Source: Bacteroidota bacterium (lineage in GTDB: Bacteria; Bacteroidota; Ignavibacteria; SZUA-365). Taken from it: a stretch of 64,000 nucleotides of DNA. The position numbers and the translations under genes were made by a program. Under the pieces are notes generated by a model. That model ran no database searches, was not told the origin of the DNA, and saw only the letters and a program-made list of their open reading frames with translations. Every line of letters begins with the position of its first letter. The stretch's first letter is position 1. Of this stretch, positions 3,380 through 49,660 are shown in pieces. The stretch lies in the NCBI GenBank assembly GCA_049663345.1, contig JBATDG010000087.1:33695-97694 (forward strand), given 5' to 3'.

Positions 3380-4915
3380 CTATTCAAGATTTCCGATGGT
3401 ACTTTCTACGTTTTCCAAGATAGTATTTTTTTGCACTAGTTCAGCGGTGCGGCGAAGATCTTCAAACATCAAACGGTCTGCATCGAGGTGAGGTACAGAC
3501 TGTCGGATAATGTTATGCGCGACGCGCGTGCCGCGGCCGAGTCCCATTGGCAAATGGAAATCAAGAGCCTGAGCCGCGGTCATAAATTCCACCGCCAGCA
3601 CGTTCTCTACATTGCGCATGATCTGCCAGGCCTTTCGTGCGCCAATGGATCCCATGCTGTTGTGATCCTCCTGATTCGCAGAAGTAGGAATTGAATCCAC
3701 GCTCGCCGGATGCGAGAGAACCTTGTTTTCCGAAACCAGAGAGGCCGCAGTATACTGCGCGATCATAAGGCCGCTGTTGAGTCCTCCCTTTGCGGTGAGA
3801 AAGCGGGGGAGTCCGCTCAGTTTTCCATTCACCATCCGTTCAGTGCGGCGCTCGGAAATACTGGCGAACTCTGACAAGGCTATGCCGAGGAAATCCGCTG
3901 CAAGGGCCACCGGCTGTCCGTGAAAATTCCCACCTTCGACGAGAGATCGGGTCTCCGCGAATATGAGGGGATTATCCGTTGCCGAGTTGATTTCACAGAG
4001 CAATACATTTTCAACGTAACCGATCGCATCGCGCGAGGCCCCGTGAACCTGCGGCATGCAGCGCAAAGAGTACGCATCTTGCACCGCGTCATGTCCGTCC
4101 CGATGCGACTCGCGAATTTCACTCTCATCCAAAAGACGCAGGATATTGCGCGCGACCGCCTGCTGTCCGGGATGCGGCCGCACCGCATGCAGGATCGGGT
4201 TGCAGGCATTTGTGGTGCCGAGCAATCCTTCGAGCGTCATGGATCCCGCGATATCGAACTGCCGCGCAAGCGCTTTTGCCCTTGCGGTCGTCCAGCTCAA
4301 ATATGCCGTCATCATCTGCGTACCGTTGATCAAGGCCAGACCTTCCTTCGCAGCAAGCACCACGGGTTGTAGTCCATGTGCCTGCAGTGCCTCGGCTGCG
4401 GGACGCGGAGTCCCGGTCGCACTCCACACTGTTTCGAGTCCCATCATCCCGCAAACCAGGTGCGCGAGCTGCACCAGATCGCCGCTTGAGCCGACGGATC
4501 CTTGAGAAGGAATCACCGGAATGATATCGGCATTGAGCATCGCAAGCAGCAACTCGACGGTACTCACCCGTATCCCGGAATATCCTTTCGCAAGCGCGTT
4601 GGCGCGCAGCAGCATGAGGATGCGGGTGATATGTTTCGGCATGGGATCGCCGCAGCCGACTGCGTGGCTGATGATAAGGTTGCGCTGCAGCTGCTCGAGC
4701 TGATCGCTTCCGATATGCACATTGCTGAATTCACCAAAGCCCGTAGTGATGCCATACATGACCTTGTTGTCGCGCACCCATTCATCAACCAATGCACGCG
4801 ATGCCTGCATGCGCGGAAGGGCCTCGGCGGATAGCTCCACCGTGCAGTCCCCGGCCGCCGCAATGAGTACATCTTCCAGTGTGAGAGAATTGCCGTCAAT
4901 CGTGAGCGTTTTCAT
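3380..4915 (-). CDS. Aromatic amino-acid ammonia-lyase of the HAL/TAL/PAL family (MIO cofactor type). At 511 aa it is HAL-sized, and its substrate is not resolved
   Basis: Family signature GSVGSSGDLVQLAH (the MIO-forming triad reads Ser-Ser-Gly rather than Ala-Ser-Gly), plus the N-terminal GITTGFGEF motif. Confidence 0.8.
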   Translation of the reverse strand: MKTLTIDGNSLTLEDVLIAAAGDCTVELSAEALPRMQASRALVDEWVRDNKVMYGITTGFGEFSNVHIGSDQLEQLQRNLIISHAVGCGDPMPKHITRILMLLRANALAKGYSGIRVSTVELLLAMLNADIIPVIPSQGSVGSSGDLVQLAHLVCGMMGLETVWSATGTPRPAAEALQAHGLQPVVLAAKEGLALINGTQMMTAYLSWTTARAKALARQFDIAGSMTLEGLLGTTNACNPILHAVRPHPGQQAVARNILRLLDESEIRESHRDGHDAVQDAYSLRCMPQVHGASRDAIGYVENVLLCEINSATDNPLIFAETRSLVEGGNFHGQPVALAADFLGIALSEFASISERRTERMVNGKLSGLPRFLTAKGGLNSGLMIAQYTAASLVSENKVLSHPASVDSIPTSANQEDHNSMGSIGARKAWQIMRNVENVLAVEFMTAAQALDFHLPMGLGRGTRVAHNIIRQSVPHLDADRLMFEDLRRTAELVQKNTILENVESTIGNLE

Positions 4916-5023
4916 AATCCTGTAGTACAGTTGGACTCAAAAAAAGTACATCAACAAAAATACACAGATGGCGCGAGAGGGGAAAGGGCGGAAATCCTCG
5001 GCCCTAACACACAAACTTTGTTT

Positions 5024-5215
5024 CCTGCGTGTGCCTTTTCCTGCGTGTGCCTTTTCCTGCGTGTGCCTTTGCCTCCGTGGGCCGTTGCCTGCGTGTGCCG
5101 TTGCCTGCGTGCGCCGTTACCTGCGTGCGCCGTTACCTGCGTGCGCCGTTACCTGCGTGTGCCGTTGCCTGCGTGCGCCGTTGCCTGCGTGCGCCGTTGC
5201 CTGCGTGCGCCTTTG
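5024..5215. repeat. Tandem direct repeat of 12 x 16 bp (consensus CCTGCGTGYGCCKTTG), located between the divergent lyase gene and the regulator gene
   Basis: The period is read directly from the sequence. The six-frame ORFs 4931..5343 inside it are artefacts of the repeat. Confidence 0.9.
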
Positions 5216-5335
5216 CCGGGCGCGGTGAACGCTCGCCTACGCCGTTTTTCGGCTTTGCCAAGCGCTTGACTTTGAAAGTATTTGCGTTTATGTTGTTCCT
5301 AACGTTTGAAAAATACCAAACATTAAGGCCGCTAC

Positions 5336-5827
5336 ATGGATAGTCGTCCTGCACTGCTCCAGAAGGAATTTGTCGAAGCATTCGGCAATCTGTATGCGGC
5401 CTATGGCTGGAAGCGTCTCGATGGACTGATCATCGGCCTGCTACTCGCGAAGGCCGAGACACTCTCTCTCGATGAAATTTGTACATCGCTTGGCCGGAGC
5501 AAAGGTCCGATCTCCGAAAGCGTTCGTCAGCTCGCTGCACGGGGATTGCTGCGTAAAATGGCGGGCCGTGAGAATCGTCGCGATTACTACGCAATCGAGC
5601 CGGATCTGTTTTTCCACAATCATCAGCTCAACATGCGGGCTGTGCGGAAGAACAGAGCCATTGCGGAGGAGTATCTCGCGCAGGAAGCGGGTTCTGCAGA
5701 ACTCGAAGGCATGCGGAAAAATCTTCGCATCATGCACGCCTTCTATACGTTGATGGAGAGTTTCTATAGTGATTTTTCCATGAGATGGAACGCAGAGAAA
5801 CAGCGGCTCATCGAATTGGAGAAATGA
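5336..5827 (+). CDS. GbsR/MarR-type winged-helix transcriptional regulator
   Basis: N-terminal wHTH region (LSLDEICTSLGRSKGPISESVRQLAARGLLRK) and size typical of the GbsR family. Confidence 0.6.
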   Translation: MDSRPALLQKEFVEAFGNLYAAYGWKRLDGLIIGLLLAKAETLSLDEICTSLGRSKGPISESVRQLAARGLLRKMAGRENRRDYYAIEPDLFFHNHQLNMRAVRKNRAIAEEYLAQEAGSAELEGMRKNLRIMHAFYTLMESFYSDFSMRWNAEKQRLIELEK

Positions 5828-5882: not shown

Positions 5883-6905
5883 ATGAGAACGGCTGTTATC
5901 ACCGGTACCGGACTGTACGCGCCAGGGGAACCGATTCCGAACTCGGTTTTCAACGAGCGGCATCAGCAGGATATCGATAGCTTCCTTCGGGAGAACCGCA
6001 ACATTCTTCAGCGCTATTACATGGCGGAGGACCAGGCTACATCCGATTTGATCGTGCCGGCGGCAAAGGATGCACTCGCTGAGGCGGGAATCACTGCCAA
6101 GGACCTCGATCTGATCATCGTGTCCACAGACACACCAGACTATATTTCTCCCAGCACGGCTGCTGTGGTTCAGTATCGCCTTGGCGCAGGCAACGCGGGG
6201 GTCTTTGATGTGAACACGGCCTGTGCGGGATTCGTGACTGCCCTCGACATTGCCTGGAAGTACATTCGTTCGGATGAACAATACCGGCACATCCTCGTTG
6301 TCGGGGCATACGGGATGAGCAAATATCTGGATCAGGACGATTACAAAATCGCGACGCTTTTCGCGGACGGGGCCGGTGCCGTCGTGCTCTCCGCTGCAGA
6401 CAGCATGCCGGATGCCGCCGGGCGGTCTTCCGTGGGAGTCCTCGCCTCGACGCTGTACGCGGACGGCAGCTTCCATGACTACATGGGAATTTTCAGCGGG
6501 GGGACGCGCATCCCGGCCTCGCACCAGAGTATTGATGCAAAGGATACTTTACTCCGATTTGCGAAGAAAATTCCTCCCGAAACCAATTCGCAGAACTGGC
6601 CGCGGCTGGTACGGACGGTGCTTGACCGCATCGGCAAAACGCCGCAGGATGTGAAGAAGTATTTTTTCACGCAGATCAACATCAACAGCATTCAACAGAC
6701 GCTCGATTTTCTCGATGTGCCGCATGAACGCTCACATAACGTCATGGATAAATTTGCCTATACCGGCAGTGCCTGCATCCCGATGGCCATCGCCGACGCC
6801 GTCGATGCGCATCGGCTGGACAATGGCGACCTGGTCATGCTCGTAGGTTCAGGCGGCGGCATCTCCATGGCGGCCCTCGCGCTCGAATGGTCCTACACCA
6901 CCTGA
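5883..6905 (+). CDS. 3-oxoacyl-ACP synthase III (FabH-like KAS III)
   Basis: Active-site region NTACAGFVTALDIAW with Cys, 340 aa, and a C-terminal GSGGG motif. Confidence 0.8.
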   Translation: MRTAVITGTGLYAPGEPIPNSVFNERHQQDIDSFLRENRNILQRYYMAEDQATSDLIVPAAKDALAEAGITAKDLDLIIVSTDTPDYISPSTAAVVQYRLGAGNAGVFDVNTACAGFVTALDIAWKYIRSDEQYRHILVVGAYGMSKYLDQDDYKIATLFADGAGAVVLSAADSMPDAAGRSSVGVLASTLYADGSFHDYMGIFSGGTRIPASHQSIDAKDTLLRFAKKIPPETNSQNWPRLVRTVLDRIGKTPQDVKKYFFTQININSIQQTLDFLDVPHERSHNVMDKFAYTGSACIPMAIADAVDAHRLDNGDLVMLVGSGGGISMAALALEWSYTT

Positions 6906-6914
6906 GTACTGCAA

Positions 6915-8414
6915 ATGAACAGTGAGACGTATTATTCCTGGATAGCATTTTCGGCCTACGCGATCATCATTGCGGGCATCGCGCTATGGTCGCGAAGCCG
7001 GGCGCGTTCGATGGAATCGTTTTCGGTCGGGACGCGGACCGTCAGTCCGTATTTCGTCGGACTGTCCCTCGCGGCCAACATGGCCAGCGCGGCGACTTTC
7101 GTCATCAATCCCGGTCTGATGTATCTTTACGGCTGGGCGGGAATTCTCGGCTACGCCGTCGCTACGCCGCTTGGGATTTTCCTGGCCCTCATCATCCTCA
7201 GCAAGAAGTTTCGCAGCATCGGAGATCGCACACGTGTGATCACAGTGCCGCAGTGGATTGGCGACCGCTTCGGCGCACGCTTTCTTACAGTGTATTTCTC
7301 GGTTCTCTCGCTTCTGCAGATCACCTTTCTCGTGCTGATCGTTGTGGGGCTCTCGGTCGTTTTGCGCAGTACTCTTGGCATCTCCATCGAGACGGCGCTG
7401 CTCGTGGTCGTGGGCTTCACCTTCGGCTACATCCTGCTTGGCGGAGCGAGCGCGCATATTCTCACGAATACAATTCAGGCGACGATAATGATCGTCGTGG
7501 CTCTGCTCCTTATCACATCGGGATTTGAATATTTCAGCGACGGCATTGGAGGGTTCTTTACCCGCCTCAGCGAAGTGTCGCCAAATTTTGCTTCGGCAAC
7601 GAATCCCGATAGCCAGCTGTTCCGTGACTGGTTTGAAGTGTTCGCCGCGAATTTTATCATCGGCATTGCCATTATTCTCCAGCCGCATATTATTTCGAAG
7701 TCGCTTTATCTGCGCACAGAAGCCGATGTCAACCGATATCTCGCAACGGCCATGATAGTCGCGACGCTGTTCTTTGCCGTACTTCTGACCGGTCTGTTCG
7801 CCAGACTTACCCTCGGCGGCGAATTGCTGAAACCCGACACAGTGATCGCGACCTATATCGTACAGGAGTTCTCTCCGCCCATCCGTGCCATTATCGGACT
7901 CGGTATACTCTCCGCTGGATTCTCCACGCTCGAAGGAATTCTCCTCGCGCTCTCATCGATATTCGCCAACGATTTTCTCAAGGGCGTGCTGCCCCGCCGC
8001 ATGACGGATGGGGATGCATGGAAAAAGCGTTCGCTGCGCTACGCGAAAATATTCCTTATTGCCCTCGCGCCTGTGACGCTTCTGCTCTCGCGGGATCAGC
8101 TTCTCCATCCCTCGCTGTCCGTCGCGCTCTTCGCGCAGAACGGCGTGTATGGACTGTTCGCCGCGACATTTGTCCCTGTGCTCTTCGGCGTGTTCACCCA
8201 GCGGGCGACAAAGGGGATGGTGTTCACTGCCTCGCTCGTCGCACTGGCCGTGCACTTCGGCATGTATTATGGGAAATTGACCGTCTACCACAATAATCCC
8301 GCCGTGACCGCAGCTATTGCGCTTATTGCAAGCGTCGCCATCATGCTTGCAATGATGGCAGTTTCACGCTCCACAGAGACTGCACGCTCGGTAGAAAAGG
8401 AGGCGGTCCGATGA
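6915..8414 (+). CDS. Sodium:solute symporter family (SSF) transporter
   Basis: About 13 TM helices with an SSF-like N-terminal pattern. The start overlaps the previous gene's stop region. Confidence 0.6.
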   Translation: MNSETYYSWIAFSAYAIIIAGIALWSRSRARSMESFSVGTRTVSPYFVGLSLAANMASAATFVINPGLMYLYGWAGILGYAVATPLGIFLALIILSKKFRSIGDRTRVITVPQWIGDRFGARFLTVYFSVLSLLQITFLVLIVVGLSVVLRSTLGISIETALLVVVGFTFGYILLGGASAHILTNTIQATIMIVVALLLITSGFEYFSDGIGGFFTRLSEVSPNFASATNPDSQLFRDWFEVFAANFIIGIAIILQPHIISKSLYLRTEADVNRYLATAMIVATLFFAVLLTGLFARLTLGGELLKPDTVIATYIVQEFSPPIRAIIGLGILSAGFSTLEGILLALSSIFANDFLKGVLPRRMTDGDAWKKRSLRYAKIFLIALAPVTLLLSRDQLLHPSLSVALFAQNGVYGLFAATFVPVLFGVFTQRATKGMVFTASLVALAVHFGMYYGKLTVYHNNPAVTAAIALIASVAIMLAMMAVSRSTETARSVEKEAVR

Positions 8415-9943
8415 ATGGCTCCGAAAGCATCCGCACGGACTGGTTCGATCGATGGGCGCTCTATTCCCCGGATCGACTCGCCCTGACGGACGAAGAATCG
8501 GGACGAACCTTCACCTACGCGCAATGCAGCCGCATCATCAACCGGCTCGCGCTTGTACTTCGCGATGAATATAAGGTGACGCACGGTGATCGGATTGCCG
8601 TCCTGGCCACGAATGAAATCGAGTACGTATTCCTTTTCTTCGCAGCTCAGAAAATCAGCGCGATTCTCGTCCCGATCAACTATCGGCTGGCGCCTCGTGA
8701 AATCGGACATATTCTTTCTGATTGCACGCCGGTGCTCTTTTCCTACCAGCGGCAGTTCACGGCAGAAATTGAAGCGCTGCCGAATGGAGTGGCGGATGGA
8801 ATACAGACAACTTCGTTCGATGGTCCCGACAGTCTGACCGCGCGCATGTTCAATGAAGAGCTGCCAGCGAATACTGTGCAGCAGCAAGCCGATTTCGAGA
8901 CACCGGTCATGGTGCTGTATACTTCCGGAACGACGGGGACTCCAAAGGGTGCTGTGATTACACACGGCATGCTGTTCTGGAATTCGGTCAACACGAGCAT
9001 GCGGCTCAATCTCGTTCAGCAGGACGTCACGCTGACGTTCGCTCCGTTTTTCCATACCGGTGGATGGAATGTGCTGACCACCCCGTTTCTGCATCGTGGT
9101 GCGCATATCATTCTTCTGAAGAAATTCGATCCCGAACAGGTGCTGCATCTTTGCGACAGCGCCGGCGTGTCGATACTTTTCGGCGTGCCGACCATGATGG
9201 ATATGATGCATCGCTGCAGCGCGTTCTCCACCGTGTCGCTCGCGACGGTGCGCTATGCCATTGTTGGCGGAGAGCCGATGCCCGCCGATTTGATACGCGC
9301 GTGGCAGGCAAAGGGCGTGCCTATAAGGCTTGGCTACGGATTGACTGAGTTTGGTCCCAACGTGTTTTCCCTTAATGAAGAGGATGCGATACGGAAAATC
9401 GGTTCCATCGGCTTTCCAAATTTCTATGTAGACACGCGTGTGGTTGACGACAGCGGCGAGGACGCTGCTGATGGTGCGGTTGGTGAACTACTGCTTCGCG
9501 GACCCGTGTGTACGCCCGGATACTGGAACAATCCCGAGGCAACGGCCGCCGCTATTCAGGATGGCTGGCTTCGGACAGGCGACCTTGTACGGCGGGACGA
9601 AGACGGCTATTTTTATGTAGTTGACCGCAAGAAGGATATGTTTATCAGCGGTGCAGAGAATGTGTATCCCGCGGAAATCGAACACTTTCTCCGCACACAT
9701 CCTGCAGTCGAAGCTGTTGCCGTTGTGGGTGTCCCTGATGAGAGGTGGGGTGAAGCAGGGAAAGCCTTCGTGGTGCTGCGCAAGGACGCCGTGACGACAG
9801 CGGAAGATCTGCTCGATTTCTGCAAAGGAAATCTGGCGAAATACAAAATTCCGAAGTATGTTGTCTTATTAGATGCTCTTCCGCTGAGCGACAGTGGAAA
9901 GATTCTCAAAAAGAAACTCAGGGCAATAGAAAATGGAAGGTAA
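8411..9943 (+). CDS. AMP-dependent synthetase/ligase (acyl- or aryl-CoA ligase)
   Basis: AMP-binding motif YTSGTTGTPKGAVITH, a GYGLTE motif and a C-terminal KYKIPKYV lysine. The start overlaps the upstream stop by 4 nt. Confidence 0.85.
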   Translation: MNGSESIRTDWFDRWALYSPDRLALTDEESGRTFTYAQCSRIINRLALVLRDEYKVTHGDRIAVLATNEIEYVFLFFAAQKISAILVPINYRLAPREIGHILSDCTPVLFSYQRQFTAEIEALPNGVADGIQTTSFDGPDSLTARMFNEELPANTVQQQADFETPVMVLYTSGTTGTPKGAVITHGMLFWNSVNTSMRLNLVQQDVTLTFAPFFHTGGWNVLTTPFLHRGAHIILLKKFDPEQVLHLCDSAGVSILFGVPTMMDMMHRCSAFSTVSLATVRYAIVGGEPMPADLIRAWQAKGVPIRLGYGLTEFGPNVFSLNEEDAIRKIGSIGFPNFYVDTRVVDDSGEDAADGAVGELLLRGPVCTPGYWNNPEATAAAIQDGWLRTGDLVRRDEDGYFYVVDRKKDMFISGAENVYPAEIEHFLRTHPAVEAVAVVGVPDERWGEAGKAFVVLRKDAVTTAEDLLDFCKGNLAKYKIPKYVVLLDALPLSDSGKILKKKLRAIENGR

Positions 9944-10352
9944 GCGAATGCAGGACATGCAGGTGGGCGACCGCGCGTCGTTTGCCAAAACGGTGAGCGA
10001 ATCTGATGTGTACGGATTCGCCGGCATCACCGGTGACTTTAATCCGGTGCATGTCAACGCGGTGTACGCGGCGGAAAGCATGTTCGAACGCCGCATCGCG
10101 CACGGGATGCTTTATGCCAGCTTTATTTCGACCGTGCTCGGGATGCAGCTGCCCGGTCCGGGTGTGATCTATCTCTCGCAGTCGCTGCGCTTTCTCAAGC
10201 CTGTTTTTATAGGCGATACCGTGACCGCAGAAGTTGAGGTCGCCGAAATGTTTGCGGAGAAAAACCGTGTCCGCTTCCTCACTCGCTGCTTCAACCAGGA
10301 TGCACAGCTCGTGGCGGAAGGGGAATCACTGCTCATGCCCCGAAAAGATTGA
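9933..10352 (+). CDS. MaoC-like (R)-specific enoyl-CoA hydratase/dehydratase (hotdog fold)
   Basis: GITGDFNPVHVNAVYA...RIAHGM motif. The gene overlaps the ligase stop. Confidence 0.8.
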   Translation: MEGKRMQDMQVGDRASFAKTVSESDVYGFAGITGDFNPVHVNAVYAAESMFERRIAHGMLYASFISTVLGMQLPGPGVIYLSQSLRFLKPVFIGDTVTAEVEVAEMFAEKNRVRFLTRCFNQDAQLVAEGESLLMPRKD

Positions 10353-12860: not shown

Positions 12861-13820
12861 ATGAAAATTTCCCTGTTCCCCATATTTCTCATCATCCTCA
12901 TGATTACTGGCTGCAGTTCCGCAAAATTCTATTACGATGCACCGCCTCTTGCCTTCGAGGACATCGACTATGGATTCCCCATGACGACGGGAACCATCAA
13001 TGGTGTGCAGATGGCCTGGTATGACAGCGGCGGCAGCGGCGCCGTCGTTGTGCTTGTGCACGGACTCGCGAGCAATGCCGGCTTCTGGCGCTACAATGTT
13101 TCCGCCTTGGTTTCCGCCGGTTTCCGTGTGATCGCCGTCGACCTTCCCGGTTACGGGAAGTCTGCAAAAGCTTACGCTACGCCCTATGGAATGGCCTTCT
13201 ACGCAAAAACGCTCGATGCCCTGCTGCAAAAGCTCTCGATTGAAAAGGCCACAATTGCCGGACATTCGATGGGCGGACAGATCGCCATGACCATGGTCCT
13301 GCAGGGGAGTGCGCGCGCAGAGCGGCTGTTACTGCTGTCGCCAGCGGGGATCGAGCGCTTCAAGGACGGCGAAGGCCGCTGGCTGAAGGACGCCGTGTCT
13401 CCCGCTTTCGTCATCAATACTCCCGAAGACCGCATACGCGCGAATCTCGCATCGAATTTCTATTGCTGGCGCGATGACCTGGAATGGATGGTGGAGGAAC
13501 GCGTGCGAATGGCGAAGGACCCCGCGTTCGAGCGGTTCGCCTACGTCGTCTCGCGCTGCGTCGCCGCTATGGTCGAGGAACCGGTTTGGCAAAGTCTGGA
13601 CAAGCTCAACGTGCCTATTCTCGTGCTCGCCGGTGAAAAGGATAATCTGATCCCTAATCCATATCTGCATGGAGGGACTACGCAGGGAGTGATGGAGAAT
13701 GGCGTCGCGCAGCTGCCTTCGGCACGGCTGCAGATGATTCCCAGTGCAGGACACATGATTCAGATCGAGAAACCCGAGCTGATCAACGAGGCTATGATTG
13801 CTTTTCTCAAGGGATCGTAA
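12861..13820 (+). CDS. Alpha/beta-hydrolase fold lipoprotein
   Basis: Lipoprotein signal MKISLFPIFLIILMITGCSS. Motifs VLVHGLASNAGFW and GHSMGG (nucleophile elbow). Confidence 0.75.
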   Translation: MKISLFPIFLIILMITGCSSAKFYYDAPPLAFEDIDYGFPMTTGTINGVQMAWYDSGGSGAVVVLVHGLASNAGFWRYNVSALVSAGFRVIAVDLPGYGKSAKAYATPYGMAFYAKTLDALLQKLSIEKATIAGHSMGGQIAMTMVLQGSARAERLLLLSPAGIERFKDGEGRWLKDAVSPAFVINTPEDRIRANLASNFYCWRDDLEWMVEERVRMAKDPAFERFAYVVSRCVAAMVEEPVWQSLDKLNVPILVLAGEKDNLIPNPYLHGGTTQGVMENGVAQLPSARLQMIPSAGHMIQIEKPELINEAMIAFLKGS

Positions 13821-13821
13821 T

Positions 13822-13862
13822 CCGGATCAACTCGTAACCCGGATCAACTCGTAACCCGGATC
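13822..13862. repeat. Short tandem repeat, about 2.4 copies of a 17-bp unit (CCGGATCAACTCGTAAC)
   Basis: Read directly from the sequence. Confidence 0.85.
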
Positions 13863-30000: not shown

Positions 30001-32021
30001 TCGCGGGTCTCCGCCGTGCCATCGGAGGTGAGGCTTTTGTCGCCGCGGTGGAAGTCGAAGGGAAGTCGTTCGAGACATGGTATTCGCCGGTGTTCGGCGA
30101 CGGCGGGGAGGTCGAACACGTCATTGGTGTCGCTGTCGACATCACAAGCCGGAAGAAGACTGAACAGGAGCTCGCCCAGTACCGCGATCATCTTGAAGAA
30201 TTGGTCGAGGCGCGGACACTGGAACTCGAGCGTGCTAATGAGCGGCTGAAGCGATTCCGCTTTGCACTTGACAGCGCGGCCGACAACATCTACATCATCG
30301 ATCCGGAAACGATGAAGTATGTGGATCTCAACGAAAGCGCCGTCGAGGCTCTTGGATATGAACGTGAAGAATTGCTGACCATGGGTCCGTACGACGTGCA
30401 GGTGCATTCCGAAAAACAGGAGCATATGGAAACCTATGCTAAGGTGCGCGGGGGCACTCTCGAGGTCGGGATTTTTGAGACAGAGCATATGAAGAAAGAC
30501 GGCAGCCGCTTCCCTGTCGAGGTGTTTGTCCGCGCCTTCGAATCCGGTGATGCCCGGCTCCTCATCGCAACTGCTCGCGATGTCTCTCGCCGCCGCGCCG
30601 CTGAGCTGGCGCTGAAGGAATCCGAGGCGAAGTATCGCAACGTGTTGGAAAACGCGAATGAAGCCATCATCGTGCTTCAGGATAATCTGCTGCGTTTCTA
30701 CAATTACAAAGTCCTAGAGCTGACAGGTCTCTCTGATGCCGCTCTCAAGGATCTCCCCATCTTCGAATTTGTGCATCCTGATGATCACGCGCTACTTCGC
30801 CGCCAATATCAGGAGAGAGTCCGCGGCGGACTTCTGCCCGAGAGCTACGACGTAAGGATGTACGACAGCAACGGCACGATCAAGTGGATGGAAGTGCGCG
30901 ATGTGCTCATCACGTGGGACGGCAAGCCCGCGACACTGAATTTCTTCAACGACATCACAGCCAGGAAATATGCGGAGGATTACATCCGCTTCCAGGCTTC
31001 ACTGCTGAGCATCGTTCGCAACTCGGTTGTGGCACTTGACCAATCGGGCCGCGTTACCTATTGGAATTCCTTCGCGGAGACACTTTTCGGGTGGACCGCA
31101 CAGGAAGTCCAGGGCAGGAAGCTGAATGAATTCCCTACCTTCGGTCCCGAGTTCGAAACCGAGCTGCTTCCCTCAGTGAGAGCTCGCGGTCATTGGGAAG
31201 GCGAAGGCGAACTGCAGCGCAGCGATGGCACAATGCTCTCCGTGTATTCGATGTGGACCGTCATTATTCAGGACGATCAGCTGCGCGGCTACGTGGGAAT
31301 CGGTATGGATCTGTCGGAGAGGAAAAAGCTCGAGAAGGAATTGCTGCAATCCCAGAAGCTCGCCTCGCTCGGCATTCTATCCGAAGGCATTGCGCATGAA
31401 TTGAGGAATCCGCTAGGTTATGCCAGTTCCGCCGCCCAGCTCCTGATATCAAAAAAGGATCTGACCGAGGAGCAGCGGAAGAAATACAGCACAGTGATCC
31501 ACACAGGCGTTGACCGGGCGAATAAAATCGTCGAAAACCTGCTTCTCATCGGCAAGCCCAAGGGGCAGCTGATGAAAAAATCGCTCAATCTGATTGACAC
31601 TGTTCGTGAAGCGCTTTCCCTGATCTCCTCGCATCACAACGCCGCTGGCGTTCACATCGAGAAGCAATTCGAAGCAAAGGAACTCCTCGTGCTGGGAAAC
31701 AGGGAGATTCTCATACAACTCTTTTACAACCTGTTCACCAACGCTCTCGATGCCATGGCTGGCAGCGGAACGCTGCGGATTTGCGGTGAGCAGAAGAAAG
31801 GGCATGTCTATATCCGCGTCAGCGATACTGGTCCCGGTGTTCCCGAGCATATCGTAGAAAACATTTTCGATCCCTTCTTTACGACCTCCAAAACCGACAA
31901 AGGCGTCGGGCTTGGCCTCACGCTCTGCTATTTCATCATGGACGACCATGAAGGCCGTATCGAGCTGGATACCACAGCAGAAACAGGTGCAGCGTTCATT
32001 TTAATCTTCCCGGCCGTGTGA
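27048..32021 (+). CDS. Giant hybrid sensor histidine kinase (1657 aa): N-terminal receiver, at least 8 PAS/PAC repeats, HisKA and HATPase_c
   Basis: REC (LLDLHLPD), repeated PAS-like blocks, H-box LASLGILSEGIAHELRNPL, and N/G boxes near the C-terminus. Confidence 0.85.
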   Translation: MMTSDAPLHIFLIEDDPEQVAFLKVTLRTEQNSAYSLTHAASLGEAKVLLAELKPDVILLDLHLPDSEGLNTPREILALAPQIPIIIYSGNTDVELAIEAVRLGAQDYLLKGEAREPLLSRAMRYAIERKHTALELEQAHTILEERNAALEIARSELRSERDMFVSGPTILFRRDFTTGFPITFVSRNVSQFGFLQRDLMVEGFRYDSLVFSDDREGFRNLLTVRLSEGIENVEQEYRILDARGEIVWLHEVARIQRGADGEPIAQLAYVVDITRRRQAEKSLSSTRRRFDTILGSINEIVYEIDIHGRLLYISPAIERILGWEADGLIGQPFAELVVEEQREGWEESFARIVSGTVLACEFPLNAADGHEHVFQISARRQTDGTQVRSIAGVLTDITDRREMEHAIRNVRTQTQQYLDIAEVVFLSLDLSGSITLINKKGCQVLGYNEHELVGRDWFDLCIPEHIREETRAFFFRIVGGGETQTDVHENDVRTKSGEERLLRWHNSLMHDSRGAVIGMLSSGEDITDRRRIELEAKGSQELIDLALWGADLGAWEWDIHNDSITLNSRALSMLGYEAGQLPLFTQLREETLPIEDVSRLQEMMNAHLEGRSPFYQAETWIICRSGEWKWVLERGKVVEYDTAGAPLRVAGTYLDLTVRKYAEIALEDSEKKFRLLAENSSDIIWTVNADFELTFVSPSIEFVLGFTPEEMMDTDFFDAIDEDFLRDKKEQFITALRNSAARPPHDRTLRIEAPFVKKDGSILWVEVVATPILDHGGNLVSVHGNSRDIHYRRIAQQGLADSEGKYRLLVQNQTDLVIKMDLDGKFLFVSPSYCRMFGKTENELLLQPFFPMVHEDDRAAALDAMKKLFEAPFTSYVEQRALTQDGWRWLGWQDTAVLNDNDEVVAIIGVGRDVTERRMAERALIDSEKRLRTVISNLPVIMFTLNKDGKFTMSEGMGLESLGLTSGQVVGLSAFDVYANNPDVVAGLRRAIGGEAFVAAVEVEGKSFETWYSPVFGDGGEVEHVIGVAVDITSRKKTEQELAQYRDHLEELVEARTLELERANERLKRFRFALDSAADNIYIIDPETMKYVDLNESAVEALGYEREELLTMGPYDVQVHSEKQEHMETYAKVRGGTLEVGIFETEHMKKDGSRFPVEVFVRAFESGDARLLIATARDVSRRRAAELALKESEAKYRNVLENANEAIIVLQDNLLRFYNYKVLELTGLSDAALKDLPIFEFVHPDDHALLRRQYQERVRGGLLPESYDVRMYDSNGTIKWMEVRDVLITWDGKPATLNFFNDITARKYAEDYIRFQASLLSIVRNSVVALDQSGRVTYWNSFAETLFGWTAQEVQGRKLNEFPTFGPEFETELLPSVRARGHWEGEGELQRSDGTMLSVYSMWTVIIQDDQLRGYVGIGMDLSERKKLEKELLQSQKLASLGILSEGIAHELRNPLGYASSAAQLLISKKDLTEEQRKKYSTVIHTGVDRANKIVENLLLIGKPKGQLMKKSLNLIDTVREALSLISSHHNAAGVHIEKQFEAKELLVLGNREILIQLFYNLFTNALDAMAGSGTLRICGEQKKGHVYIRVSDTGPGVPEHIVENIFDPFFTTSKTDKGVGLGLTLCYFIMDDHEGRIELDTTAETGAAFILIFPAV

Positions 32022-32087
32022 CCTGCCGTAGTTAAACCGATCTAGCACACATAGCCCCTCCCGCCCCGGTCGGAGTGAGAAACAAGG

Positions 32088-32113
32088 AAAAAGTCCGCAT
32101 TTGCGGGCTTTTT
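32088..32113. terminator. Bidirectional rho-independent terminator (AAAAAG-hairpin-CTTTTT)
   Basis: CCGCA-TT-TGCGG stem flanked by an A-run and a T-run. Confidence 0.6.
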
Positions 32114-32175
32114 CCGTATGCATCGGTAGCAGAGAGACGACCGGGCTAGTCCGAAAGCACTATTCAATTCATTCC

Positions 32176-32195
32176 CTATGCAGATCCCTGCATAG
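32176..32195. promoter_or_regulatory. Perfect 8-bp inverted repeat CTATGCAG-ATCC-CTGCATAG inside a motif (CAATTCATTCCCTATGCAG) shared with the paralogous site at 34788..34835. It is a candidate operator
   Basis: Read directly. The paralogous intergenic region carries an expanded 16-bp palindrome built on the same TGCAG core. Confidence 0.5.
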
Positions 32196-32403
32196 TTTTT
32201 CAGTGCGCTGCATACTGCGAAGATTAACATTTTGTAAGATTCGTGCAGCATCATCATATGGATAACTGCTCCGATTTCCTTTCAGTTTTCAACCGTTGCT
32301 TTAGTGTTCGGCTCCTATCCTGTTGATTGACAACAGATCCGCATCACGGCAAGCAGGTCTAAATCCCCTATTTCAGGGGCAATTCCCCCCACATTGTGAA
32401 TTA

Positions 32404-32419
32404 TGGCACGATTTGTGAA
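32404..32419 (+). promoter_or_regulatory. Sigma-54-like -24/-12 promoter candidate (TGGCACGATTTGTGAA). The -24 box is perfect and the -12 box is degenerate
   Basis: TGGCACG sits about 55 nt upstream of the start codon at 32476. The paralogous position at 35014 has a full consensus. Confidence 0.4.
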
Positions 32420-32475
32420 CAAATAAGGGAGAATCGAAGACTAAGCTCATGATGTTTTATGAGGAAAGTGCTGTG

Positions 32476-34263
32476 ATGAAAAATCAGATACCGATTGGTA
32501 AAACAATTATCCTTGCAATTACACTATGCATGTTCGGATTCGGGACGCAGGCGAGTGCAGCAACACGGACTTGGTCCGCTTTTGCGGCTACCACTTCATG
32601 GGGGACTGCCTCAAATTGGGTTGAGAATGCAGTCCCAGCTTCTGGTGATGACGTTGTTTTCCTTAATTCCGCTACTGTGGTACTCGAGAGTGCGACTCAA
32701 ATCGGTACATTGACACTTTCCGCTGGTGCGGACGTCGGCTTCACCGCGAACGGCCTGCTAACCATCACAGGAACGCTTACCTTGGGTGCGGGATCAGAGA
32801 TCAATCTTGGGAATGGAACAGCCTCCTACCCGCTGCAATTAAATGGAAATATCCTTTTTGCTGATGGCAACAGTGCATCGGATCCTACTAGAATCTACTC
32901 TTCAGTCATCCCTTGGAAGCTTATCAAAATCAGCAGTGCTTCTCACATCTCCATGGGAGGAATTGCGAACGCTTACTTTGGTGATCATACGACGACGTTG
33001 ATCCAGCTAAATGCACAGCCATTCACTTCGGATGTTCGATTTGAGGGTAATCTTCAATTCACTACGACAAACAACATTCTGCTTGGGGCGAATAACTTAT
33101 ATCTGGGCAAGTCTTGCGAACTCACAGTTACTGCGGTATTCCCTAGTGGTGATGGATTTATTGCGACTGACGGTACCGCAGCAACTCCGCAAGGGACTGT
33201 GCGCCGTCAGTTTGATGCTGTAGCCGATTCATTTTATTTCCCTGTTGGCCCTGTCGGTGGACGAATGTCGCCGATCCGCATCAAAATTATTCCACCATCA
33301 ACTAGTGCTATCTTTACATCCGCTTCACCCTGGCCGTATATCTCTGTCCGCTGTTTGTTAAATTCGAGCGGATCGACAGGCGGACATCCGATGAATTTTG
33401 ATAATTCAAGAATCTGGGTGTATTGGCCTGTGAAGGGCGTCGGGATTTCGGAGCCTGCTTATCTTTCAGGCCGAATGTACCTCCATACGAATTATCGTAG
33501 CGGAGATCCTAAAATCTATTCTGCTCGTTGGACTCCGAACTACGAAGACCTCGGTTCGCTTGGAATATGGGATTTGACTGGCTCCTTACCCGGAACGACA
33601 ACAGGGAATACTCGGGAGGTGCCCTTTTCTGGATGCCCGGGTTTCGGAGACTTTAATATTGGAACAGGAATTGCCGGCGATCCTCTTCCCGTCGAACTCA
33701 CTTCCTTCAGCGCCCGCTACATTGATCGTTCGGTGCGGTTGAACTGGAACACAGCGACGGAGCTGAATAACTACGGCTTCTCGATCGAGCGTTCGCAGGA
33801 CAATGAGACATGGGAAGAAGTCGGCTTTGTGGAAGGCTACGGCACTTCGCTTAGTCCTAAGAGCTACACTCATACGGACATGCTGACGGATGACCTCGCG
33901 AAGGTTCCGCAGCTGGCCTATCGTCTGCGTCAGATCGATCGTGACGGCACCACGGATTACTCGAATATCGTGTTTGTGAAGACGGGCACATTGCCCGCGG
34001 GCGTAGAAATGTACGCTGCATATCCGAATCCCTTCAACCCCTCCACGACGCTGAGCTTTACGATTCAGGACCCTGCGACTGTGAATCTGAAGGTGTACAA
34101 TACCTTCGGTCAGGAAGTCGCAACCCTGCTGAGCAGCAGTGCGATGGATGCGGGCCTGCACACGGTCTCCTTTAATGGAGAGCAGCTCCCGAGCGGCGTG
34201 TACATGGCAGTGCTGGAGGCGAACGGTACGCTGCAGCAGCAAAAGTTTGTGCTCAACAAGTGA
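32476..34263 (+). CDS. Adhesin-like secreted protein: signal peptide, beta-helix-like N-terminal repeats, conserved pre-CTD module and a T9SS C-terminal sorting domain
   Basis: Signal peptide MKNQIPIGKTIILAITLCMFGFGTQASA. N-terminal TRTWSAFAATTSWGTASNWVENAVPASGDDVVF (autotransporter-passenger-like repeat). LNWNTATELNNYGFSIERS module. C-terminal YPNPFNPSTTLSFTI...GVYMAVL tail. Confidence 0.75.
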   Translation: MKNQIPIGKTIILAITLCMFGFGTQASAATRTWSAFAATTSWGTASNWVENAVPASGDDVVFLNSATVVLESATQIGTLTLSAGADVGFTANGLLTITGTLTLGAGSEINLGNGTASYPLQLNGNILFADGNSASDPTRIYSSVIPWKLIKISSASHISMGGIANAYFGDHTTTLIQLNAQPFTSDVRFEGNLQFTTTNNILLGANNLYLGKSCELTVTAVFPSGDGFIATDGTAATPQGTVRRQFDAVADSFYFPVGPVGGRMSPIRIKIIPPSTSAIFTSASPWPYISVRCLLNSSGSTGGHPMNFDNSRIWVYWPVKGVGISEPAYLSGRMYLHTNYRSGDPKIYSARWTPNYEDLGSLGIWDLTGSLPGTTTGNTREVPFSGCPGFGDFNIGTGIAGDPLPVELTSFSARYIDRSVRLNWNTATELNNYGFSIERSQDNETWEEVGFVEGYGTSLSPKSYTHTDMLTDDLAKVPQLAYRLRQIDRDGTTDYSNIVFVKTGTLPAGVEMYAAYPNPFNPSTTLSFTIQDPATVNLKVYNTFGQEVATLLSSSAMDAGLHTVSFNGEQLPSGVYMAVLEANGTLQQQKFVLNK

Positions 34264-34302
34264 GAGTGGAAAGAGAGAGAGCACATTAGCCGAAGACGTG
34301 AA

Positions 34303-34326
34303 GGCGGGGTTTTGAGAGGCCCCGCC
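34303..34326 (+). ncRNA. Conserved stem-loop in the cargo 3' region (GGCGGGG-TTTTGAGAGG-CCCCGCC) with no downstream U-tract
   Basis: The paralogous hairpin at 36927..36960 keeps the loop (TTGTGAGAGG) while both stem arms change in a compensatory way. Confidence 0.5.
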
Positions 34327-34376
34327 TCTCACGCATTCTCTGAAGAATTTGGAAGGAAACAGGTTGGAAACAGTGA

Positions 34377-34691
34377 ATGCAAATGGGAATCGATCAGCGG
34401 AGCAGAGTTATAATGGAGATACCGTTTTCGTTTTCGCAGTATGCGTATCCGTTGAACCCAAGTGCGACCGTGAGCTTTACCCTGGAAGAACAACAGGAAG
34501 TCTCCTTGAGGATTTATAACACGTTCGGACAGGTAGTGCACACGCTCTACGAAAACGTTCAGATGAAAGCCGGATACCATGAATTGAGGCTCTACGGCGA
34601 AACCTTCCCCTCAGGTGGATGCTACGCCAGGCTTCATACAAAAAATGGAGTTCAGCAGCGCACATTGGTGCTGAGCACCGACAACAACTGA
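34377..34691 (+). CDS. CTD-only minigene: a free-standing T9SS C-terminal sorting domain (104 aa) with no signal peptide and no cargo domain
   Basis: The whole ORF matches the Por-tail (YAYPLNPSATVSFTL...GGCYARL). It is about 80% identical to the second minigene at 37051..37365, and both ORFs are intact. Alternative start M13 (34413). Confidence 0.55.
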   Translation: MQMGIDQRSRVIMEIPFSFSQYAYPLNPSATVSFTLEEQQEVSLRIYNTFGQVVHTLYENVQMKAGYHELRLYGETFPSGGCYARLHTKNGVQQRTLVLSTDNN

Positions 34692-34736
34692 CCCCTGAGG
34701 CTACAACCAAGGTAGGTTGATAAAGATTGAGAGGAG

Positions 34737-34766
34737 AAAAAAGTCCGCCGCAAGCGGGCTTTTTTC
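34737..34766. terminator. Bidirectional rho-independent terminator
   Basis: A-run, stem AGUCCGC/GCGGGCU with loop CGCAA, then a T-run. Confidence 0.6.
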
Positions 34767-34801
34767 TTGTTACAGGGTGGAGGTATGCAATTCATTCCCT
34801 A

Positions 34802-34835
34802 TGCAGTGGATTGCATATCTATGCAATCCACTGCA
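34802..34835. promoter_or_regulatory. Perfect 16-bp inverted repeat TGCAGTGGATTGCATA-TC-TATGCAATCCACTGCA, preceded by the shared CAATTCATTCCCTATGCAG motif. It is a candidate operator
   Basis: Read directly. Confidence 0.5.
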
Positions 34836-35013
34836 TGCTATTTTCATTAAGATCACATATAAATAATCACGGGTGCGATTTAGGAAAAAGATGCTATATC
34901 TTAAATTACCAGTTGGAGGAAGCTGGCTATCTCGTTGTTTAGCTTTATCTAGCCGCTCATCTCATGAGGGCGTCAATGAGGACAAAGCATATCTTCAATA
35001 GAACGGATACTTT

Positions 35014-35029
35014 TGGCACGTTTTATGCA
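35014..35029 (+). promoter_or_regulatory. Sigma-54 -24/-12 promoter (TGGCACGTTTTATGCA), with the GG and GC dinucleotides at consensus spacing
   Basis: Matches TGGCAC-N5-TTGCA at every position except one. It lies 60 nt upstream of the start at 35090. Confidence 0.6.
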
Positions 35030-35089
35030 TTTGTTAAGATCAAATACGAATAGACGTGATGCATTTCAGTAAGGCAAGAAATACTAACC

Positions 35090-36891
35090 ATGCAGAAATA
35101 TAGACTGTTTGTGAAAATCGGCCTGCTGGCGGCAATCCTTTTCTATATGGGACTCGGATCTGACGCCTTCGCTGTCACCCGGACCTGGGTAGGTGTCGGA
35201 CTTGGCAATTGGAACACTGCTCTCAACTGGAGGCCTAGCAGCGTCTCGGGTATTACCGGAAACACCGGTGATGCCGTGATTATTAACACCGTCTCGACGA
35301 TTACCATGAATGCTTCTTCAAACATCACGATCGCATCATTGCCCATTTCTGCGTCGAGTGTTGGACTCATTTCGGATAAAAAGATAACCACAGGGTCATT
35401 GACGGTTTCAGGTTCACTTGTTCTCAGCTATGTGAGTGCTGGAGGTGCGGCGAACAATATTTTTGATATCACCGGTGCAATGAGCCTTACTGCTCCGGTA
35501 TTATCTCTCGCTCGGGTTCCTGGGTGAGTACGGATGTCAAGATAAATATCGGCAGGAGAGGTACAGGCACAATAACCATGGCGGCGATTGCGAATAATTA
35601 CATCGCCTACCATGTCAACACTAGTATTGCTCGCAAACCTGTCCTGCTTTCCGATGTGAGATTTGAAGGAGACATTAATCTGCCTTCAGGAATTTCTCTT
35701 GGCACTGATGACCTGTATCTAGGGATCAACGCAGACGTGCTTACTCCGAATGCTGAAATCGGTGACCCAGGGAACTGCATCGAAGTTTCCGGCGGGAATA
35801 CAACTCCCTCCGGTGTTGTACGCAAACAGTATACTGCCGTAAATGACGCGTTCACCTTTAATGTGAGTCCCGGTACCGGCCGGTTGTCGCCCATCACGAT
35901 CAAGGTCATCAGCCCGACGCCATCCTCCTCATTTACAAGTGCTGTTCCCTGGCCGCATATCTTTGTCCGCGTCGTTCTCAATAATGGTGGAAACGGCGGA
36001 CACCCCGCGAATCAGCAGTCGCAAAAAGTCGGGGTTCACTGGCCGGTTAAAGGCTACGGAATCAACACTCCGGTATATTTCTCCGGTGTAATGACTTCCC
36101 ATAACAACTACAGGAACGGATCAGCTAACGATCTGTATTCAGCCCGCTACGCTCCAAGCTACGAAGATAACCTTTTTAATAGCGGTTGGGACCTCACCGG
36201 AACACAGCAAGTCACGACTACGAGCGGTGACCTTCGAAGCGTCCCGTTTAACGGCTTCCCCGGCTTTGGTGATTTCACCATCGGTTTTGGAGATCCCTTT
36301 GGCGGCGACCCTGTACCCGTCGAGCTCACTTCCTTCAGCGCACGCTATATCGATGGTTCGGTTCGCTTGAACTGGAATACCGCGACCGAGCTTAATAACT
36401 TCGGCTTCGCCATCGAGCGTTCGCAGGATTCGAAGAACTGGGAAGAAGTCGGCTTCGTGCAGGGCTACGGAACTTCCAGCAGCCCGAAGAGCTATTCGCA
36501 TACCGATGTGCTTACGGACGACCTTGCACGCACTCCGCAGCTCGCTTACCGTCTGCGTCAGATGGATCGCGACGGCACAATTGATTACTCGAACATCGTT
36601 TTTGTCAAAACGGGCGAACTGCCCGCCGGCGTCGAACTTTACGCTGCCTATCCGAATCCCTTCAACCCCGCAACTACGATCAGCTTTACTGTCAAGGAGT
36701 CTGCGAACGTAAACCTGAAGGTGTACAACACCTTCGGTCAGGTAGTCGCGACCCTGCTCAGCAACAGCTCAATGGATGCCGGCCTGCACACGATGTCGTT
36801 CAACGGAAATGACCTTCCGAGCGGCGTGTACATGGCAGTGCTTGAGGCGAGCGGTGAACTGCAGCAGCAGAAGCTTGTGCTCAACAAGTGA
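35090..36891 (+). pseudogene. Paralogue of cargo gene 32476..34263. It is split by a frameshift near 35520 into ORFs 35090..35527 (signal peptide plus N-terminus) and 35524..36891 (beta-helix, pre-CTD module, T9SS CTD)
   Basis: The two ORFs jointly align along the full length of the 604-aa paralogue (145+455 aa). The frame changes from phase 2 to phase 1. This could be a genuine pseudogene, a sequencing error or programmed slippage. Confidence 0.55.
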
Positions 36892-36960: not shown

Positions 36961-37050
36961 TAAGATTTAAAGTGAAAGACGGACTGGGGAATTAGGAATT
37001 ACGAATTAAGAATTACGAATTACGAACTTTGAAGAAGCAGGAAAGAGTTA

Positions 37051-47612: not shown

Positions 47613-49373
47613 TCAGGAACAGCGCCGGACGATCAGCATCGTGATGTCATCCGACTGATTCGCACCCACTGTAAATGCTACGATTTCATCGCGAATATAC
47701 TTGAGGAGAGCATCTGCCGAGAGATCTCTCTGATCGGTAAGGAGCTGCTGCAGACGTTCATCACTGAATTCCTCCATCTCCTCCGACATGGCCTCATTTA
47801 CACCGTCGGTGTAGCAGACAATCATATCATCCGGCGCCAGCTGCACAGTCTCGAGACTGTAGGGGGGCGTATCCTTCATAATGCCGAGTATCAGACCTCC
47901 GGCATCAAGTGCGCGCATACTGCCGTCGGCATGCAGCAAGTAGGGAGGGTTGTGTCCGGCGTTTACATACGAAAATGTGTTATCCTGTGTGTTCAGGATT
48001 CCCCAGAAAAAGGTGATGAACTTGTCGGCGGAAGTATTGCCATGAATGATGGTGTTGATTCGGGCCGTGGCATCGGGCATGGGAAGACGGAGGGGAGCGA
48101 TGGTCCGCAAGGCGGCCTGCACGTTTGCCATAAGCAATGAAGCCGGCACTCCCTTCCCTGCAACATCTCCAATGGCGAGCACAAACTCGTGGTCGGAAAG
48201 TGAAATCACGTCGTAGTAATCGCCGCCCACCTGCTGCGACGAATCGTTTATCGCAGCGATCTCGTAGCCATTCAGCGATGGAATTGATTTCGGAAGAAGA
48301 CCCTTTTGTATTGTTTTCGCGACGCTCAGTTCCTGTTCCATCCGCTGCTTATCGATAGTCTCAATTACCAGTCGCGCATTCTCGAGTGCGGAAATAGTAA
48401 TGTTGGCAAGCGCGTGGAGGTATTCGAGCTCCGTGCGATCGAAGTTTGCTCCGCCGACTCGCTGACCCAGGCAGAGCATGCCGCGCACACGATGCTGCGA
48501 CATCATAGGGATCAATGTCGTGATGCCCATATCGAAAAGCCACTGTTCGTGCGGGTGCTCCGGTTGGCGCTGCGCGGAAAAAAGCACGGTCTCGTGCAGA
48601 TTTTCAAGCGCTTGCTGATGTCCTGCATCTGCTTCGAATTCGGGAAGCTTCACCGCTACAGGCTGCAAATTGCTTCCGTCATGCGTGAACACGGCATAAC
48701 GGAGAACGCGCAGCTGTCCCATAAGCGCATAGCTCAGAATTCGAAGAATGTCATCGGGTGCGAACGTCGTATTCATTTCCCGGCTGATCTCAAATAGGGT
48801 GTTCATCTCCTGAATCTTGGTATCAAGCCGTCGATTTACCTGGCGGAGATTTTCAATGGCCAACGCGTTCTTCACTGCCGTGGCTGCTACGGCGGCAACC
48901 GATTCCAGAAATGTCAGATCCGCCGTCTCGAAGGGCTTGCCGGTGATCTTTCGTCCCAGACCGATTATGCCGACCATGTGATCCTTAAGCAGCATCGGAA
49001 CAATTATTTCCAGGCCGCATTCGAGGGAACACGCCCCAAATTGCTTCAGCGACGGATCCTCGGTTTCGTTGAGGGAGGCGACAGAAATGACATGATCCCA
49101 ACCAATGGGAATGGTGAAATCGGAATCAATATTCTCAAGGGAAAACCCCTTTACCGAGCGGACCCGATAAGTTTGATCGCCCCTTTCCAGAAGTACAACT
49201 CCCCGCGTAACCATCAACTTTCCCATCGAGGAAAGCAGAATATTTCCCAGAATGAAATCGAAGTCCGTAGAGGCATTCAGCACGTTGCTTAGCTCCAACA
49301 GCGCGGCGCTGTCGGAAATGATGTCATACGCGGAATGAGAATAATCTGCCGGCATTTCTGAGAATAAGTTCAA
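47613..49373 (-). CDS. GAF-domain PP2C (SpoIIE/RsbU-type) serine phosphatase
   Basis: GDVAGKGVPASLLMA and YTDGVNEA PP2C motifs, with GAF-like domains N-terminal. Confidence 0.8.
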   Translation of the reverse strand: MNLFSEMPADYSHSAYDIISDSAALLELSNVLNASTDFDFILGNILLSSMGKLMVTRGVVLLERGDQTYRVRSVKGFSLENIDSDFTIPIGWDHVISVASLNETEDPSLKQFGACSLECGLEIIVPMLLKDHMVGIIGLGRKITGKPFETADLTFLESVAAVAATAVKNALAIENLRQVNRRLDTKIQEMNTLFEISREMNTTFAPDDILRILSYALMGQLRVLRYAVFTHDGSNLQPVAVKLPEFEADAGHQQALENLHETVLFSAQRQPEHPHEQWLFDMGITTLIPMMSQHRVRGMLCLGQRVGGANFDRTELEYLHALANITISALENARLVIETIDKQRMEQELSVAKTIQKGLLPKSIPSLNGYEIAAINDSSQQVGGDYYDVISLSDHEFVLAIGDVAGKGVPASLLMANVQAALRTIAPLRLPMPDATARINTIIHGNTSADKFITFFWGILNTQDNTFSYVNAGHNPPYLLHADGSMRALDAGGLILGIMKDTPPYSLETVQLAPDDMIVCYTDGVNEAMSEEMEEFSDERLQQLLTDQRDLSADALLKYIRDEIVAFTVGANQSDDITMLIVRRCS

Positions 49374-49443: not shown

Positions 49444-49660
49444 GGAGGAGGTGGAAAGGTTAAAAGGTTAAAAAGTTAAAAGGTTAAAAAGTTAAAAGGT
49501 TAAAAGGTTAAAAGGTCAAAGGGTGAAGAGGGAAATAAGGGGAATGAGGGAAATAAGGGAAATGAGGGAAATAAGGGGAATGAGGGGAAGAGGGGGAAGA
49601 TGGGGAAGAGGAGGAAGAGGAGGGAGAGGAGAAGAGGGGAAGGGGAGGTAAAAGGATAGT
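49444..49660. repeat. A ~215-bp homopurine tract with essentially no cytosine (pyrimidine-rich on the coding strand) inside the partner-switching operon. It is built from nested microsatellites
   Basis: One C in about 215 nt on the + strand. Three sub-arrays: GGTTAAAA(A) x ~8, GGGAAATAAGGGGAATGAG x 3 and GGAAGAGG-like x ~8. Flanked by the RsbW-like gene end (49660) and the PP2C gene start (49373). Confidence 0.9.

Follow-up and report, generated by a model that had tools for sequence, protein, structure and literature searches.

A 16-bp tandem repeat array between divergent hutH and regulator genes of an uncultured Bacteroidota genome: a probable minisatellite beside a predicted operator

The intergenic region between the histidine ammonia-lyase gene hutH and a divergently transcribed GbsR/MarR-like regulator gene, found in the MAG of an uncultured member of the Bacteroidota, carries 12 head-to-tail units of 16 bp. 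Judged from sequence comparison, this array is most likely a young, lineage-specific and near-neutral minisatellite of the VNTR type that was born by slippage, rather than a dedicated protein-binding element, and we give this reading a probability of about 0.72. Intergenic VNTRs or minisatellites are already well known as a kind, and the present copy is new and unremarkable. The striking repeat in this divergent promoter region would thus not be the operator, and the probable real control elements are located alongside it. The features on which the argument depends are given below in coordinates of the window, i.e. the whole stretch of 64 kb of DNA that was analysed.

3380 to 4915, minus strand: hutH, histidine ammonia-lyase of 511 aa (Pfam PF00221, 638.8 bits; NCBIfam TIGR01225 hutH equivalog, 669.7 bits against a cut-off of 539.15)
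4940 to 4990, minus strand: conserved hutH-proximal block with the A-rich CAAAAAAGYACATCAAYAAAAATAC... and GAGAGGGGAAAGG (invariant columns of a nine-region alignment)
5020 to 5211, no strand assigned: 12 full head-to-tail 16-bp units, consensus GTTGCCTGCGTGCGCC (TRF, motif count against shuffles, unit table, lag identities)
5212 to 5259, no strand assigned: three decayed units in register with the array, with 7, 9 and 8 of 16 matches to the consensus
5266 to 5294, plus strand: sigma-70-type promoter of the regulator operon, -35 TTGACT, 17-nt spacer, -10 TATGTT (promoter scan)
5305 to 5320, no strand assigned: palindrome TTTGAAAAATACCAAA located past the -10 and ahead of the regulator start codon; the consensus in the family is TTTGAAA-NN-TTTCAAA
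5336 to 5827, plus strand: GbsR/MarR-like winged-helix regulator of 163 aa, first gene of the operon (Pfam HTH_27; homologues named 'GbsR (MarR family)')
5883 to 6905, plus strand: FabH-like KAS III (Pfam, NCBIfam)
6915 to 8414, plus strand: sodium:solute symporter, SSF (Pfam, NCBIfam)
8411 to 9943, plus strand: acyl-CoA ligase (Pfam, NCBIfam)
9933 to 10352, plus strand: MaoC dehydratase (Pfam, NCBIfam)

The array lies, as an earlier sequence-only reading had stated, between two divergent genes, the lyase on the minus strand ending at 4915 and the regulator starting at 5336. The hutH product has the aromatic-amino-acid-lyase fold, and its gene is followed by that of a CBS-domain protein. A role as tyrosine ammonia-lyase of a flexirubin-type cluster was considered and dismissed: the protein scores above the cut-off of the hutH equivalog and far below that of the FlxA model. 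The regulator, for its part, scores far below the cut-off of the NCBIfam CudC model. The gene order regulator-fabH-SSF-ligase is kept in most of 80 genome loci from Ignavibacteriota, Rhodothermales and related Bacteroidota.

The repeat itself is readily delimited. TRF returns a single array at 5020-5217 with a period of 16, 12.4 copies, 92% matches, no indels and a score of 277, which bears out the 12-copy, 16-bp repeat of the sequence-only reading; the frame chosen there, 5024-5215 with the unit CCTGCGTGYGCCKTTG, describes the same array with its register shifted by 4 nt. The 12-nt core CCTGCGTGYGCC has 11 exact occurrences, all of them within the array, and two further matches elsewhere in the 64-kb window, each with one mismatch, where 0.94 would be expected by chance; the resulting 13 matches were reached in none of 100 shuffles. 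One copy, unit 4, has diverged and reads CCTCCGTGGGCC. The linker variants that had been described are present too: units 1-3 have TTTT/GTTT, unit 4 has TTTG, units 5, 6 and 10-12 have GTTG, and units 7-9 have GTTA. By these variants the array falls into the blocks 1-3, 4, 5-6, 7-9 and 10-12. Self-identity is 0.93 at a lag of 16, 0.90 at 32 and 0.85 at 48, compared to ~0.25 at lags of 15 and 17. Because like variants are adjacent, because identity falls with lag and because the decayed units stand in register, a local stepwise amplification is the probable origin. Each unit contains one 9-bp alternating pyrimidine-purine tract, TGCGTGYGC, with eleven such tracts in the array. The units abut directly, in contrast to the repeats of a CRISPR array, which are separated by unique spacers.

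Beyond the last full unit, the three decayed units are each marginal when scored in register against the window background (P ~0.16, 0.02 and 0.06 among GC-rich 16-mers); for the fixed register, the joint P is ~2e-4 as the simple product of the three values. This suggests that repeat-derived DNA probably extends to 5259, 6 nt short of the regulator -35. The GC content of the array is 67%, versus 46% in the remaining intergenic region. The array does not fill the divergent promoter, as had been claimed: it occupies 198 of the 420 bp of intergenic DNA, or ~240 bp when the decayed units are included, and it contains neither the mapped core promoter of the regulator nor the conserved hutH-proximal block. 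Its end is 49 nt upstream of the regulator -35 (6 nt counting the decayed units), and its start is ~35 nt beyond the conserved hutH block.

A coding repeat was also considered and rejected. All three plus-strand frames through the array are open, so the argument that a 16-bp period cannot be coding because it is not a multiple of 3 is not decisive; the conclusion drawn from it nevertheless holds, since the array is missing from the orthologous loci and is flanked by conserved promoter modules. Structure in the single strand was likewise dismissed: the predicted fold is no better than that of shuffled sequences (z = +0.94), and no inverted repeats that could form a hairpin or cruciform are found. 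An Rfam search of the array gave a chance-level match only (E = 0.49).

The presence of the array is supported by data outside the source assembly. In the Logan short-read assemblies of SRR28060544 and SRR28060545, which are independent of each other, the flanks are identical to the window and the contigs break off within the array on either side, where they still include its first 1.9 and its last 2.3 units; the HutH and regulator proteins encoded on these contigs are identical to those of the window. Both edges of the array are thereby confirmed, and the interior count of 12 units comes from the source metagenome assembly alone. As the longest exact repeat inside the array is 40 bp, assemblies with k=31 must break within it, and those with k of at least 41 can resolve it.

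These observations bear on the reading in which the array was left behind or carried in by a mobile or replication-related element (a MITE, a REP-type element, or plasmid or phage iterons) or is an artefact of assembly. The extra ~240-275 bp do look like an insertion relative to all relatives, and iterons are direct repeats of a similar unit size. However, a search of positions 4900-5350 found no inverted repeats, and hence neither dyad symmetry nor the terminal inverted repeats of such elements, and there is no second copy within the 64 kb examined, as a MITE or REP element might have. Megablast found no plasmid match to the intergenic region, and the repeat dimer had no match in viral contigs. 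It had none in metagenome contigs either, a weak negative given that this incomplete collection likewise missed a control 25-mer from JGI contig Ga0395806_0018768 (L087). No rep, integrase or transposase gene is adjacent; where iterons would be expected next to a rep gene, DnaA boxes and an AT-rich unwinding element, this GC-rich array has hutH and the regulator/fatty-acyl operon as its neighbours. A replication origin was rejected on similar grounds, as DnaA boxes are not in excess and are absent from the intergenic region, and the cumulative GC skew makes no turn. With the edges found in two independent assemblies and the interior resolvable at a k of at least 41, we consider a mobile element or artefact extremely improbable.

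The working regulatory DNA is better sought in the blocks that flank the array. On the regulator side, the -35 (5266-5271) and -10 (5289-5294) elements have counterparts, TTGAC and TAtrTT, at the same place in 9 of 9 aligned relatives. The hutH-proximal block is a putative hutH promoter region, in which a weak -35 TTTCCC (4985-4980) and -10 TATTTT (4961-4956) are possible hexamers, although they were not called by the consensus scan. Inside the array, the promoter scan found no promoter-like site on either strand.

Comparison with related genomes separates what is conserved from what is not. The order cbs<-hutH | regulator->fabH is kept in 15 orthologous loci (L005, L006, L008-L013, L016, L086-L088, L091, L092 and L085, the last with a truncated hutH), the regulators of which are 63-88% identical to that of the window; L089, L090 and L093 have the same junction with a hutH fragment only. 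The intergenic region between hutH and the regulator measures 147-297 bp in the 15 loci compared to 420 bp in the window, and the 16-bp repeat is present in none of these syntenic regions, including those with regulators that are 82-88% identical. An alignment of nine orthologous intergenic regions shows a left and a right conserved module with a spacer of very variable length in between. The left module consists of the hutH start, the A-rich block and GAGAGGGGAAAGG (window ~4940-4990), and the right one of TTGAC (-35), 17-18 nt, TAtrTT (-10), AACGTTTGAAAwATwCCAAA and the start codon. From the hutH-side block to the regulator -35, the gap is ~5-95 nt in the relatives (6 to ~104 alignment columns) versus ~275 nt in the window, and all of the excess length of the window is inside this spacer, as array and decayed tail. 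The absence in relatives shows the array to be dispensable for the regulation that is conserved; an effect within this lineage is a separate matter.

The same spot has been duplicated independently in a sister clade. In L085, whose regulator is 88% identical, a 19-bp unit of unrelated sequence, GTTTGTCGATTCATTCATC, occupies positions 1619-1662 in 2.3 copies and ends 8 nt before the -35 of that locus, and the near-identical L092 has one copy of GTTTGTCGATTCATTCATC at the same position (reverse strand). Since L085 and L092 differ in copy number (2.3 versus 1) at the position of the array, the spacer upstream of the regulator -35 appears prone to tandem duplication. In the other loci with enough sequence upstream of the regulator, TRF found only small unrelated arrays of 1.9-3.6 copies in few lineages, and convergent repeats there are unremarkable.

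A better candidate for the operator than the array is the palindrome at 5305-5320. In 57 of 91 loci from several phyla (Ignavibacteriota, Rhodothermales and Bacteroidota MAGs; L005-L093), the regulator start is preceded at a distance of 21-61 nt by the pattern TTTG-N8-CAAA, mostly in the form TTTGAAA-NN-TTTCAAA. The pattern is retained down to 36% identity of the regulator protein and makes a strong phylogenetic footprint. Within the 64-kb window, a search allowing up to 2 mismatches gave one match only, at 5305-5320. The palindrome is therefore likely to be the operator of the GbsR/MarR-like regulator, a prediction made from sequence conservation, and its location, past the -10 but ahead of the start codon, makes it probable that the regulator represses its own operon through it. 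In this respect the locus resembles those of other MarR/GbsR-type repressors. As a by-product, the comparison provides a phylogenetically footprinted promoter and predicted operator for a widespread, uncharacterised operon of regulator, FabH-like enzyme, symporter and acyl-CoA ligase. In the Rhodothermales-like MAG of L019, 3.6 tandem copies of TCAAACGTT lie upstream of the regulator gene (1064-1095); this unit is similar to the operator half-site AACGTTTGA, and the repeat could represent a reiterated half-operator.

The palindrome also bears on the proposal that the array is an iterated binding site, on which many copies of the adjacent regulator or of another DNA-binding protein would be loaded between the promoters. 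A position between a regulator gene and its divergent target is typical of operators, and 12 phased identical sites could in principle bind a protein cooperatively. However, the footprinted site of this regulator family is the AT-rich palindrome, a different sequence that the 16-bp unit does not resemble and that is conserved in more than half of the loci, with its sole copy in the window outside the array. The unit, in contrast to MarR/GbsR operators, lacks dyad symmetry, differs in base composition and is not conserved; it does not recur elsewhere in the 64 kb, and it is missing where regulators 63-88% identical keep both the operator and the gene order. Iterated binding by the regulator, put forward in the sequence-only reading, is accordingly not supported, and we regard a binding-site array for any protein as highly improbable.

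For the minisatellite reading, the following course of events is proposed. Starting from a 16-bp seed in the unconserved spacer, directly upstream of the regulator -35, successive rounds of replication slippage or unequal recombination would have multiplied the unit and left 12 near-identical copies and about three older, decayed ones. Regulation would continue to reside in the flanking conserved blocks, i.e. the hutH-proximal block on one side and the -35, the -10 and the palindrome on the regulator side. The one predictable effect of the array would be geometric, in that it moves the hutH and regulator promoters apart. On the general knowledge of divergent promoters, a wider gap should weaken the coupling that arises from RNA polymerase crowding and from transcription-generated negative supercoiling. 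Copy number would be expected to be unstable. That the array may act as a copy-number-variable spacer, which had also been suggested, is plausible on sequence grounds; as it lies upstream of the regulator -35 and of the hutH-proximal block, a change in copy number would alter the distance between the promoters only and would leave each core promoter with its geometry unchanged.

The features of the array agree with those of minisatellites, in which head-to-tail units of high identity and a length within ~7-100 bp lie in DNA without conservation in the orthologous loci of related species. The bacterial VNTR/minisatellite loci used in MLVA typing (units of ~9-100 bp) are similar in their near-identical, intermediate-length, head-to-tail units in non-coding DNA, in their variant blocks and decaying edge, in being lineage-specific and in breaking short-read assemblies. 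They differ in that they are defined by copy-number polymorphism, whereas the present array is known from one strain; a search for HutH homologues found none more than 93% identical except from the same organism. The 12 well-kept copies (92% match) point to recent or continuing homogenisation, and a selected contingency locus would look alike.

Such a locus would be a rheostat, in which frequent changes in copy number tune the expression of hutH, of the operon or of both via the distance between the promoters, via helical phase or via the absorption of negative supercoils. Each unit adds ~1.5 helical turns, long near-identical arrays are intrinsically unstable, and the array is placed between divergent promoters with a 9-bp TGCGTGYGC tract in every unit. 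SSR contingency tracts generally have short units and lie within the core promoter or the leader. The present tract is outside the -35/-10 spacer of the regulator, outside the 5' UTR or transcribed leader, outside the reading frames of both genes and outside the conserved hutH promoter block; its unit is 16 bp compared to the typical 1-9 bp, and its single strand is unstructured. The intergenic repeat tracts of Haemophilus influenzae hmw1A and Helicobacter pylori sabA are similar in that their length can modulate an adjacent gene (PMC12721329; PMC4081817, on the repeat rheostat of sabA). In hmw1A, which can serve as a precedent, it is an upstream 7-bp ATCTTTC repeat that sets expression, and this tract is transcribed in the 5' UTR (PMC12721329). 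A second precedent is found in the promoter tandem repeats of Mycobacterium tuberculosis dop, lpdA and cysG, located immediately upstream of genes, which vary in copy number at 1e-2 to 1e-3 per chromosome within and between strains (PMC12817950). However, these units are 54-58 bp long and are treated there as promoter sequence in tandem repetition, such that copy number changes promoter dose (PMC12817950), whereas the unit of the array is promoter-free and, at 16 bp, shorter than a -35/-10 pair. Furthermore, as the spacer is unconserved in relatives, there is no conserved upstream activator site across the array. Taken together, a rheostat appears unlikely. The significance of the array is small; were promoter coupling tuned by it, the known repeat-based expression rheostats would gain a modest further example.

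The alternating tracts have also been considered as a sink for supercoiling through Z-DNA formation, a candidate that was set aside as low-probability speculation, as a tract of just 9 bp is short for that structure and alternating runs are frequent across the window, with 116 of at least 9 nt. A more elaborate proposal builds on them, in which the array is a selected, copy-number-variable insulator that uncouples hutH from the autoregulated fatty-acyl operon, the spacer having grown from a few tens of bp to ~275 bp, with the eleven TGCGTGYGC tracts absorbing negative supercoils and the strength of coupling heritably tunable by slippage. From the sequence this is very unlikely; were it true, the independent 19-bp duplication of the L085 clade would represent that strategy arising a second time.

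Other repeats were seen in the same material. TRF over 641 kb of related loci gave 29 rows (period of at least 7, at least 3 copies), some of which overlap. Intergenic minisatellites are common in this clade and break short-read assemblies. L087, whose regulator is 82% identical to that of the window, contains at 446-628 a 19-bp array of 9.5 copies, GGAGGAGCGGTAGGAGCGT, between the TPR and CBS genes and 2 kb from hutH, and the contig end of L088 (1-98) lies inside the same GGAGGAGCGGTAGGAGCGT array; the equivalent gap in the window is only ~35 bp.

The window itself has four further array regions besides 5020-5217 according to TRF. At 49455-49641, a compound purine-rich array of AAAGGTTA x 8.8 followed by GAGGGGAAT x 12.9 (alternatively an 18-mer x 4.4) is flanked by two minus-strand genes, an RsbW-like HATPase_c_2 gene at 49660-50112 and a GAF-SpoIIE phosphatase gene at 47613-49373, and this array is as striking as the one at 5020-5217. 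Two others are smaller and also intergenic: a 17-mer is repeated 2.8 times at 13815-13862, at the 3' end of an alpha/beta-hydrolase gene, and GAATTAC is repeated 5.4 times at 36989-37026, downstream of the gene of a T9SS-sorted protein. The region 32001-36000 has a GC content of 0.49 compared to a background of ~0.54-0.56 and could be foreign or atypical DNA.
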